From Escherichia coli 042 (GTDB lineage: Bacteria > Pseudomonadota > Gammaproteobacteria > Enterobacterales > Enterobacteriaceae), in assembly GCF_000027125.1 (NCBI RefSeq), contig NC_017626.1: DNA of 64,000 nt, one strand, 5' to 3'. How positions within the stretch are numbered: position 1 is the first letter of the stretch; every line of letters begins with the position of its first letter. Both the position numbers and the translations under genes were made by a program. Below, in pieces: positions 42,442 through 43,142 of this stretch. A model generated the notes under the pieces. The model was given only the letters and a program-made list of their open reading frames with translations, ran no database searches and was not told the DNA's origin.

Positions 42442-42656
42442 CTCACAATTCAGGCGGTTGACTGTTGTCTGGTTTGCGGGGAGTTTGTTAAAAGAAACTG
42501 GCATGGTGAATCCCCCTGTGCGGAGGGGCAATCAGCGAGTAGGTATATGGGATAATCGCGGATTCAGGTGCTGGTACTGAATTCACCGGGAGGCACCCGG
42601 CACCATGCAATGGCACATAGCGCCACTCTCCAGCCCCTCTCCGGAGGGGCTTTTCT
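42442..42656 (+). repeat. structured element copy A (~215 bp) ending in an intrinsic terminator; candidate sRNA or cis-regulatory leader
   Basis: shares blocks ctcacaattcag, ttgac, tttgttaaaa, gcatggtgaatccccctg.gcggaggggc, tcaccgggaggcacccggcaccatg and terminator gcccctctccggaggggcttt with copy B. Confidence 0.6.
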
Positions 42657-42844
42657 GTGCCGGATACATCACAGTTTCTGGAACCTTAGGTACTACAGTA
42701 TCAGTCAGGGTGCTATATTTTCAGATGTGATGAAAGCCTGTCAGCAGGCAGGGCGTATCGGAAATGACCCAGTAGAGAAAACGTTGACTCAGATACCGGT
42801 GCTGAGTTACCGGGAAACCGGCATCACATGACCGCTATCCTTCC

Positions 42845-42870
42845 AGGCCCATCCGCTCCGGTGGGCCTTT
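42845..42870 (+). terminator. intrinsic terminator between the two repeat copies
   Basis: ggccca tccgctccgg tgggcc ttttt. Confidence 0.5.
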
Positions 42871-42909
42871 TTACTGCAGAAAACAGGTTCCCCGTTAAAT
42901 GCTATGTTG

Positions 42910-43142
42910 CTCACAATTCAGTAAGTTGACAGTTGCCTGTCAGACTGGGCATTTGTTAAAAAAATTTCGCATGGTGAATCCCCCTGAGCGGAGGGGCGAC
43001 TGGTGACGGTATAATCTCTGATTATCAAAACGAGAATGACGCGGGTTTAGTGGCACCGGACTGAACTCACCGGGAGGCACCCGGCACCATGTGCATGATG
43101 ATACAGATACGCGGCTTTAGCCCCTCTCCGGAGGGGCTTTCT
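42910..43142 (+). repeat. structured element copy B (~233 bp) ending in an intrinsic terminator
   Basis: same conserved blocks and terminator as copy A. Confidence 0.6.

Follow-up and report, generated by a model that had tools for sequence, protein, structure and literature searches.

Tandem STnc100-family elements with a covarying, pseudoknotted core upstream of nanS-p in a prophage of Escherichia coli 042

Introduction

In Escherichia coli O157:H7 strain EDL933, the small RNA (sRNA) STnc100 is present in 11 copies. Nearly all of these are transcribed without induction and STnc100_4 was confirmed by Northern blot (PMC5331693). The copy of strain Sakai that is located just after stx2B is EcOnc27, which was crosslinked to Hfq (Hfq-CRAC) and is convergent with the anti-sRNA AsxR (PMC4104026, PMC7873438). 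At least eight lambdoid prophages have similar convergent sRNA pairs between PR' and the lysis genes (PMC4104026, PMC7873438). This report deals with a stretch of 64,000 nucleotides from E. coli 042 (assembly GCF_000027125.1, contig NC_017626.1), referred to as the window, and with a set of tandem elements of the STnc100 family that lie between prophage tRNA genes and nanS-p.

In EDL933 the name sRNA103 is used and, as related in PMC7873438 and PMC12711010, its overexpression raised the transcripts of fimZ and espA. In a recent study, the features that predicted haemolytic uraemic syndrome included single-nucleotide polymorphisms in the copy linked to stx2 (PMC12711010). STnc100 RNA was also detected in outer-membrane vesicles of Shiga toxin-producing E. 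coli (PMC12370729).

PasD1 and PasD2 (PasD1/2) of enteropathogenic E. coli (EPEC) share an ancestor with STnc100 (bioRxiv 10.64898/2026.05.13.724894). Both are abundant and Hfq-dependent, and their 5' end is the G of GCAUGGUG, as derived from RNA coverage and the size on Northern blots (PMC8550237 Table S6). The predicted seed UGUGAG and the RIL-seq chimeras are located in the 3' ~50 nt, between the fold and the terminator (PMC8550237).

A preliminary description of the locus, made without database searches, had reported two tandem copies and interpreted them as a riboregulator or attenuator with mutually exclusive helices. Here, the elements are assigned to their family, the fold of the core is analysed by covariation and the competing interpretations are weighed.

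Results

Family membership

The whole window was scanned with the covariance models of Rfam 15. Two full-length matches to RF02076 ("Gammaproteobacterial sRNA STnc100"; gathering score 47) are located between the prophage tRNAs and nanS-p, at the position given in the preliminary description. Copy A (42472-42662) scores 136.3 bits (E 7e-30) and copy B (42940-43149) scores 165.4 bits (E 2.5e-37), both over model positions 1-206. A second covariance model, R1, was built from a MAFFT alignment of 28 diverse cores and gives 105 bits for copy A and 105 bits for copy B. The published STnc_100 primers (CATGGTGAATCCCCCTGTGC / TACTGAATTCACCGGGAGGC) match copy A (PMC12370729). Copies A and B are members of the catalogued prophage sRNA family STnc100 (EcOnc27, sRNA103), which is related to PasD. 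The location agrees with this assignment: the family is found in the lambdoid late region, in 302 phage records (mostly Stx-converting) and in many Enterobacterales genera.

No Rfam family other than STnc100 covers the elements at E≤1. Known ribozyme, riboswitch and leader classes were rejected on the same ground. There is what we take to be a faint resemblance to twister motifs.

The repeat units open with CTCACAATTCAG at 42442 (A) and 42910 (B). GCATGGTG follows at 42501 and 42969, the local hairpin CCGGGAGGCACCCGG at 42586 and 43070, CACCATG at 42601 and 43085, and the terminal hairpin AGCCCCTCTCCGGAGGGGCT with its T-run at 42632 and 43119. All motifs of the preliminary description were thus recovered in both copies. 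As described there, conserved blocks alternate with divergent spacers. Copies A and B agree at 68.6% of the aligned positions and differ mainly in the internal hairpin and the 3' tail. The number of copies has to be corrected from two to three, as a diverged copy is located between A and B. With RF02076 this middle copy reaches 30.1 bits, below the threshold of 47; with R1 it scores 39 bits (E 4e-9). It is kept in the same position at four other loci (L036, L042, L059 and L081). The middle copy is not PasD, PasA or Esr41, as the PasD sequence differs, the PasA probe sequence is not in the window and there is no Esr41 match at E≤1.

Anatomy of the three tandem copies

Each gene is composed of a core of ~110-125 nt, a variable and poorly structured 3' tail of 25-45 nt and an intrinsic terminator. 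Within the core, the order is P1, AAU, P2, a strand of 6-7 nt, the variable P3, P4, a single A, P5 and the 3' strand of P1. P2 is a hairpin of five pairs in which one A is bulged and the loop is U-R-W-G-C, and P5 is CCGGG-AGGCA-CCCGG. The features on the plus strand are as follows.

42465-42494 (+), putative promoter of copy A: -35 TTGTCT 42465-70, 18-nt spacer, extended -10 TGtTAAAAG 42486-94, +1 G42501
42501-42657 (+), copy A, STnc100-family sRNA gene (RF02076, R1, minimum free energy fold, covariation)
42501-08/42601-08 (+), P1 of copy A; 42512-27, P2; about 42535-59, P3
42560-67/42577-84 (+), P4 of copy A; 42586-600, P5
42531-36 (+), AUCAGC of copy A, pseudoknot with GCUGGU 42570-75
42609-31 (+), 3' tail of copy A; 42632-51, terminator, followed by the U-run
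42711-19 (+), extended -10 TGcTATATT of the putative promoter of the middle copy, no clear -35, +1 about A42725
42711-42874 (+), middle copy, diverged third paralogue, core 42721-42835
42725-32 (+), AUGUGAUG, P1 of the middle copy, with CAUCACAU, compensated
42836-44 (+), 3' tail of the middle copy; 42845-68, terminator with T-run (terminator scan); P5 of this copy is CCGG-GAAA-CCGG
42933-42962 (+), putative promoter of copy B: -35 TTGCCT 42933-38, 18-nt spacer, TGtTAAAAA 42954-62, +1 G42969
42969-43145 (+), copy B, STnc100-family sRNA gene (RF02076, R1, minimum free energy fold)
42969-76/43085-92 (+), P1 of copy B; 42980-95, P2; 43043-51/43060-68, P4; 43070-84, P5
43000-05 (+), CUGGUG of copy B, pseudoknot with CACCGG 43054-59
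43093-118 (+), 3' tail of copy B; 43119-38, terminator, followed by the U-run

In the minimum free energy (MFE) folds of A, the middle copy and B, P1, the hairpins and the terminator are all formed, and the z values are -2.0 to -2.6 (middle copy -2.6). A tRNA-like reading of P1 and P5 was rejected: ARAGORN makes no call, CCA is missing and the loop of P5 differs from a T-loop.

The promoters of A and B were predicted by eye and by homology with PasD2, in which the layout TTGACT-18 nt-TAAAAA-7 nt-G reaches the reported 5' end. By the same layout, +1 of A and B would be the first base of P1. The preliminary description had named a TTGAC-containing promoter. TTGAC is indeed present at 42458 and 42926, but it lies 25 nt from the best -10, and the workable -35 elements are the adjacent TTGTCT and TTGCCT. 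A σ54 reading of the upstream block, judged by eye, does not fit. In Klebsiella pneumoniae homologues, TTGACA/TTGACT sites are placed for a start near P1 (by eye), and the genes are followed by terminators of their own.

Covariation of the core

Relatives were collected as two sets. In viral contigs, exact matches to the P5 hairpin marked 120 loci with 60 distinct cores, and a gapped pattern, searched in one genome per species, gave at least 120 stretches from ~20 Enterobacterales genera. In the MAFFT alignment A2 (28 diverse cores), 91% of the cells of P1, P2, P4 and P5 are paired and 16 pairs are changed on both sides. None of 500 shuffles reaches the observed values and slid structures are ~40% paired. 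For 75 distinct homologues aligned with R1, 96.5% of the cells are paired and 21 of the 26 pairs are compensatory; for 113 distinct homologues the values are 93.2% and 23 of 26. Selection on RNA structure, which had been surmised from the conserved stems, is supported by these numbers.

P1 is the catggtg/caccatg helix of the preliminary description. Five of its eight pairs change on both sides among the 28 cores, with variants such as CAUGAUG/CAUCAUG, UGUGGUG/CACCACA and UGCGGUG/CACCGCA. In arrays of Enterobacter and Pantoea, P1 is formed by GGAACG/CGUUCC and UUGCUAUG/CAUAGCAA, which are unrelated to one another. P1 closes a multi-helix domain that is under selection for structure.

P2 covaries in the register with the bulged A (CCCCC/GG-A-GGG, GCGGC/GC-A-CGC and CCAGC/GC-A-UGG). 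The register CCCCU/AGGGG of the Rfam entry is impossible in the GCGGC and CCAGC types, for example in GCGGC-UAAGC-GC-A-CGC (three sequences, by eye). The invariant nucleotides that are unpaired are AAU in J1/2, U..GC in the P2 loop, the bulged A and AGGCA or GAAA in the P5 loop. The fold of the core is more elaborate and more widespread than the database entry shows.

A pseudoknot between the P2-P4 strand and the P4 loop

The strand that follows P2 pairs with the loop of P4. At least nine mutually unrelated sequence solutions of this pseudoknot are present: AUCAGC/GCUGAU or GCUGGU (copy A), CUGGUG/CACCGG (copy B), AAGGUUG/CAACCUU, AAUGAC/GUCAUU, CCAGUC/GACUGG, UGGUUAU/AUAACCA, CCAGCC/GGCUGG, CAGUCA/UGACUG and UCGACC/GGUCGG. 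As the offsets of the strands vary between subtypes, the pseudoknot was tested by comparing the duplex energies of cognate and non-cognate strands. The cognate mean is -8.7 kcal/mol, compared to -4.3 kcal/mol (sd 2.0) for non-cognate combinations. Against shuffled loops, 42 of 54 distinct combinations reach p≤0.05. Between A and B the sequence of this helix is wholly different and complementarity is kept, which amounts to a complete compensatory switch inside the window.

The pseudoknot was found neither in the Rfam structure line printed by cmscan nor in the papers searched, and the word "pseudoknot" is not present in the 2026 preprint (bioRxiv 10.64898/2026.05.13.724894). Relative to that structure line and to these papers, it is new.

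The alternative helix

In the preliminary description, the 5' segment GGUGAAU was assumed to pair either within P1 or with AUUCACC. Both pairings can be drawn in copy A, and GGUG is able to pair with either of two CACC motifs, both of which are invariant in the tested alignment. In copy B, however, the partner is ACTCACC instead of aATTCACC, so the alternative helix contains an A-C mismatch there. Among the 28 cores, ggtgaat/attcacc has no compensatory changes and 18 of the 28 sequences are unpaired at one position. The outer three pairs fail because that strand covaries with P4 instead. Where G is replaced by A in the 5' strand, the P1 partner follows with C to U, whereas the partner in the rival helix is unchanged. 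Formation of the rival helix would break P4 and P5, two covarying hairpins. In relatives with GGAACG/CGUUCC or UUGCUAUG/CAUAGCAA as P1, GGUG is replaced and the helix is impossible. The MFE folds of A, the middle copy and B include P1 and lack the rival helix. A GGUGAAU/AUUCACC attenuator was rejected on the pair counts and on the relatives without GGUG.

A different exchange can be drawn in A and B, as the 3' arm of P2 (GGAGGGGC) is identical to the 3' arm of the terminator. Over 68 distinct combinations, pairing between P2 and the terminator has a mean energy of -5.3 kcal/mol for cognate and -5.25 kcal/mol for non-cognate strands. A P2/terminator antiterminator was rejected on this basis; the likeness is local to this lineage. 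Accordingly, the attenuator reading is not supported. The region contains an already known RNA family, and the mechanism proposed for it in the preliminary description is mistaken.

A convergent minus-strand element and a fourth core

Downstream of copy B, the opposite strand contains a further candidate gene.

43150-43220 (-), short sRNA-like gene, convergent with copy B; strong terminator, stem 43178-43157, T-run to 43150

In sequence (CACGUUUUAUUGUUUAUUCCUUGCCGCCCGCGUCUCCCAGCGCGGGCUUUUUUU) it is a homologue of E2348C_1409.E2348C_1408.IGR, an sRNA candidate from RIL-seq in EPEC (seed CUUGCG; PMC8550237 Fig. S5). Copy B and this predicted gene form a convergent sRNA pair. An assignment to AgvB or AsxR was rejected, as there is no match to RF02702 or RF02703 at E≤10 in 43100-43400.

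A fourth copy is located elsewhere in the window.

26080-26221 (-), fourth copy, core alone, without a terminator of its own (R1 80.9 bits, E 8e-21)

With RF02076 it reaches 35.6 bits, below the threshold. It is positioned between DicF (26238-26289) and isrK/C4 (25810-25998), in the leader of the operon of a Rha/Ant-like antirepressor ORF (25195-26049). Its P5 is compensated to CCUGG/CCAGG.

Distribution, arrays and solitary cores

The intergenic query matches 2869 of 5426 complete E. coli genomes, in up to 14 places per genome, and the complete array is present in 352 E. coli genomes. Longer arrays separate Q from the holin gene in Enterobacter cancerogenus (six cores; L181 7181-8977, minus strand) and in Ca. 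Pantoea formicae (five cores; L160 12890-14334, minus strand). Some array copies are spaced only 3-12 nt apart. Rfam finds most array copies and misses subtypes with GCGGC in P2 (L072 and L003). Diverged subtypes fall under the Rfam threshold, so the search model can be improved.

Cores lie scattered among clusters of phage tRNA genes, in the same orientation as these. Several end 2-8 nt before a tRNA gene (tRNA-Arg, tRNA-Met; L012 682-808 and 1308-1429, plus strand; L171 11063-11193, plus strand), so one shared precursor would be made. Copies that consist of the core alone occur in other operons (window 26080-26221; loci L072, L009 and L003), and some copies adjoin genes for a large DNA methylase and a DnaB-like helicase (both named from the N-terminal sequence).

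High-scoring cores are also present on short contigs assigned to Xanthomonas pisi (L198, 888 bp) and Prolixibacteraceae (L191, 388 bp) and in a metagenome-assembled genome of Nanosynbacter (L151). Most likely, these three are contaminations with enterobacterial or phage DNA.

Genomic setting

At 41-46 kb, the window covers the late-regulatory region of a lambdoid prophage, as judged from a 100% identical annotated stretch in E. coli HCP5S3_I4. There, the order is antiterminator Q, a small ORF, a DNA methyltransferase, tRNA-Ile(CAT), tRNA-Arg and tRNA-Arg, followed by a partial pseudo-CDS, the DUF6645/SASA esterase (nanS-p), a class II holin and a lysozyme. The sRNA array occupies the 975-bp gap between the end of the last tRNA (42396) and the start of nanS-p (43372). 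stx is not present here, and the three tandem copies fill the slot.

42147-42396 (+), tRNA cluster Ile(CAT)/Arg/Arg, upstream of the sRNA array
42411-42436 (+), intrinsic-terminator-like hairpin and T-run closing the tRNA cluster (terminator scan)

In the array region, 10 terminator-like sites are found, compared to 1.6 expected from shuffles. The tRNA gene at 42147-42222 (+) is called tRNA-Met (CAT) by ARAGORN, and the identical gene is tRNA-Ile in RefSeq. Presumably, this tRNA decodes Ile once it is lysidine-modified.

At copy A, RefSeq has no ncRNA feature. On the opposite strand it lists a partial pseudogene ("hypothetical protein"; L001 3095-3220, corresponding to window 42491-42616, minus strand), which was probably called in error on top of the sRNA gene. 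Between the array and nanS-p, the 226-bp stretch 43146-43371 is unannotated and is found at ≥80% coverage in 936 E. coli genomes. It contains a short G+C hairpin (CTGCGCAACTGCGCGG) followed by TCTTTTT at 43247-43270 (+), ~100 nt before the start of nanS-p. At the 3' end of nanS-p (45180-45210, plus strand), the motif GAUAGAAAGUCUGGUGCUGGAGAUAAAUGCA is present without any mismatch; in EPEC E2348/69 it is listed as a target site of PasA in the esterase genes. The probe sequence of PasA was not found in the window.

Discussion

Proposed function

The locus probably comprises three tandem, independently transcribed STnc100-family sRNA genes, which would act in trans, and a convergent minus-strand short sRNA gene. 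A weak σ70 promoter with an extended -10 would start each RNA on the first base of P1, and the copies would be expressed in the lysogen without induction, as are their homologues. By analogy, they may act as Hfq-dependent base-pairing sRNAs with Hfq bound at the terminator. Expression, Hfq binding and pairing via the last ~50 nt are here ascribed to the copies from their homologues. The differing 3' tails could then provide differing sets of targets, and the folded 5' domain may be a module that stabilises the RNA or binds a factor. The terminators would, in the lysogen, shield nanS-p and the lysis genes from transcription; during lytic growth, Q-modified polymerase from PR' would read past them.

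Several points weigh against this proposal. The transcription of A, the middle copy and B in this prophage is deduced by homology, the putative promoters are weak and a scan for the σ70 consensus called no plus-strand promoter. Hfq would not find an ideal site in the terminators of A and B, as their U-runs are short and interrupted (UUUUCU, UUUCUUAU). Functional evidence for STnc100 is limited to the effect of sRNA103 overexpression on fimZ and espA and an in-silico match to stxB. A pseudoknotted five-helix domain far exceeds the needs of a seed-pairing sRNA. Furthermore, 76 of 190 distinct copies have no terminator within 130 nt; this number is an upper bound, as the crude rule behind it missed real terminators in K. 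pneumoniae. Together with the spacings of 3-12 nt in arrays and 2-8 nt before tRNA genes, the terminator-less copies indicate that the conserved unit is the core and not the whole sRNA.

Competing explanations

In the main rival explanation, the core itself is the functional unit. It could bind a protein or small ligand and serve, for example, as a sponge or decoy of a host or defence factor, or it could be a module for processing or stability. Bulk synthesis would then occur from the late operon, and promoter, tail and terminator would be secondary additions. This would explain both the five-helix pseudoknotted domain on a seed-pairing sRNA and the existence of core-only copies. The deep covariation with the pseudoknot, the invariant unpaired nucleotides and the occurrence in many Enterobacterales genera are in line with it, as are the arrays, with as many as six copies from Q to the holin gene, the copies fused to tRNA genes and the core-only copies in other operons. 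The core is retained in spite of free variation in the tails and terminators. On the other hand, the core is not known to have a binding partner or ligand, most copies have a terminator and many have a recognisable promoter. PasD has lost most of P5 and is still an abundant, Hfq-dependent sRNA with interactions mapped to its tail, and a 5' fold could merely shield the RNA from RNase E. We regard this explanation as rather unlikely compared to sRNA genes acting in trans. A related suggestion can be made somewhat more readily, if still tentatively: the STnc100/PasD family may be defined by its compact pseudoknotted five-helix domain, with a GNRA-like P5 loop and the bulged-A hairpin, and this domain may have a structure-specific job. 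A job of this kind is suggested by the fold and the copy numbers, as seed pairing alone would not need them. Binding or titration of a protein or small molecule and RNA processing are candidates.

A cis-acting, riboswitch-like leader, in which pairing of the 5' GGUGAAU sets the terminator and read-through into nanS-p, is very improbable. Alternative pairings can be drawn on paper, including the exchange between P2 and the terminator, but P1 compensates and the rival helix does not, it is mismatched in copy B, GGUG is replaced in many relatives and the family as a whole has no P2/terminator complementarity. The downstream neighbours of the units vary as well (the holin gene, a tRNA, another copy, another sRNA; in Stx phages the unit also follows stx2B), so the elements are not tied to nanS-p. 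In this prophage, a convergent terminator and a further hairpin separate copy B from nanS-p, and homologues accumulate as discrete sRNAs (PMC5331693, PMC8550237). It is harder still to credit that the units are decayed remnants of a duplicated coding gene, a case considered in the preliminary description, or functionless selfish repeats. The partial pseudo-CDS of RefSeq antisense to copy A and short ORFs of up to 93 aa overlapping the region could be taken that way. However, substitutions compensate in helices and follow no codon pattern, the covariance-model matches are full-length, no ORF is common to the copies and homologues are transcribed and Hfq-bound (PMC4104026, PMC5331693).

Significance

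The region upstream of nanS-p should be annotated as an array of known prophage sRNA genes and not as a new riboregulator. The family is of wider interest, as it is present in more than half of the complete E. coli genomes and flanks stx2 in Stx phages. What is gained here is a structural refinement: the pseudoknot, the register of P2, the sub-threshold subtypes and the arrays. The pseudoknot, which offers concrete mutants, the folded core as the conserved unit and the sub-threshold subtypes could all help to explain why phages retain and multiply this RNA.

Comparison with known systems

STnc100/EcOnc27/sRNA103 is matched by the elements in the full-length model, the slot in the prophage late region and the length of ~160-200 nt. 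They differ from the Rfam entry, in which the structure line printed by cmscan has no pseudoknot and P2 is in another register.

PasD1 and PasD2 of EPEC E2348/69 (EcOnc13 homologue) share P1, P2, P4 and a pseudoknot (AAUGAUC/GAUCAUU) with the elements. The kind of promoter, the site upstream of a sialate esterase gene and the layout of core, tail and terminator are also alike. Unlike the elements, PasD has lost most of P5 (GCGGGAGGC-GCCAUGC) and scores 41 bits with RF02076, and its tail, with the seed UGUGAG, bears no relation to those of A, B and the middle copy. These three, which keep the full P5, are therefore not PasD proper and have only the core in common with it.

Attenuators and riboswitches resemble the units in having a folded domain, here closed by P1, followed by an intrinsic terminator. 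They differ in that the units have no conserved antiterminator and no fixed downstream gene, and that each has a putative promoter of its own. Moreover, the homologues of STnc100 are stable trans-acting RNAs. GOLLD and ROOL are also prophage-borne RNAs with an ornate fold, often beside tRNA genes, but they are 500-800 nt long and unrelated in sequence to the tandem core of ~120 nt.

The arrangement at the 3' end of the array is most similar to the pairs EcOnc27/AsxR and EcOnc06/AgvB (Tree et al. 2014). In each case, an STnc100-type RNA on the plus strand faces a minus-strand RNA of ~50-70 nt, terminator to terminator, and the location between PR' and the lysis genes is that of the pairs at this moron site. 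In E. coli 042, the minus-strand partner resembles E2348C_1409.E2348C_1408.IGR instead, and two extra plus-strand copies precede the pair.

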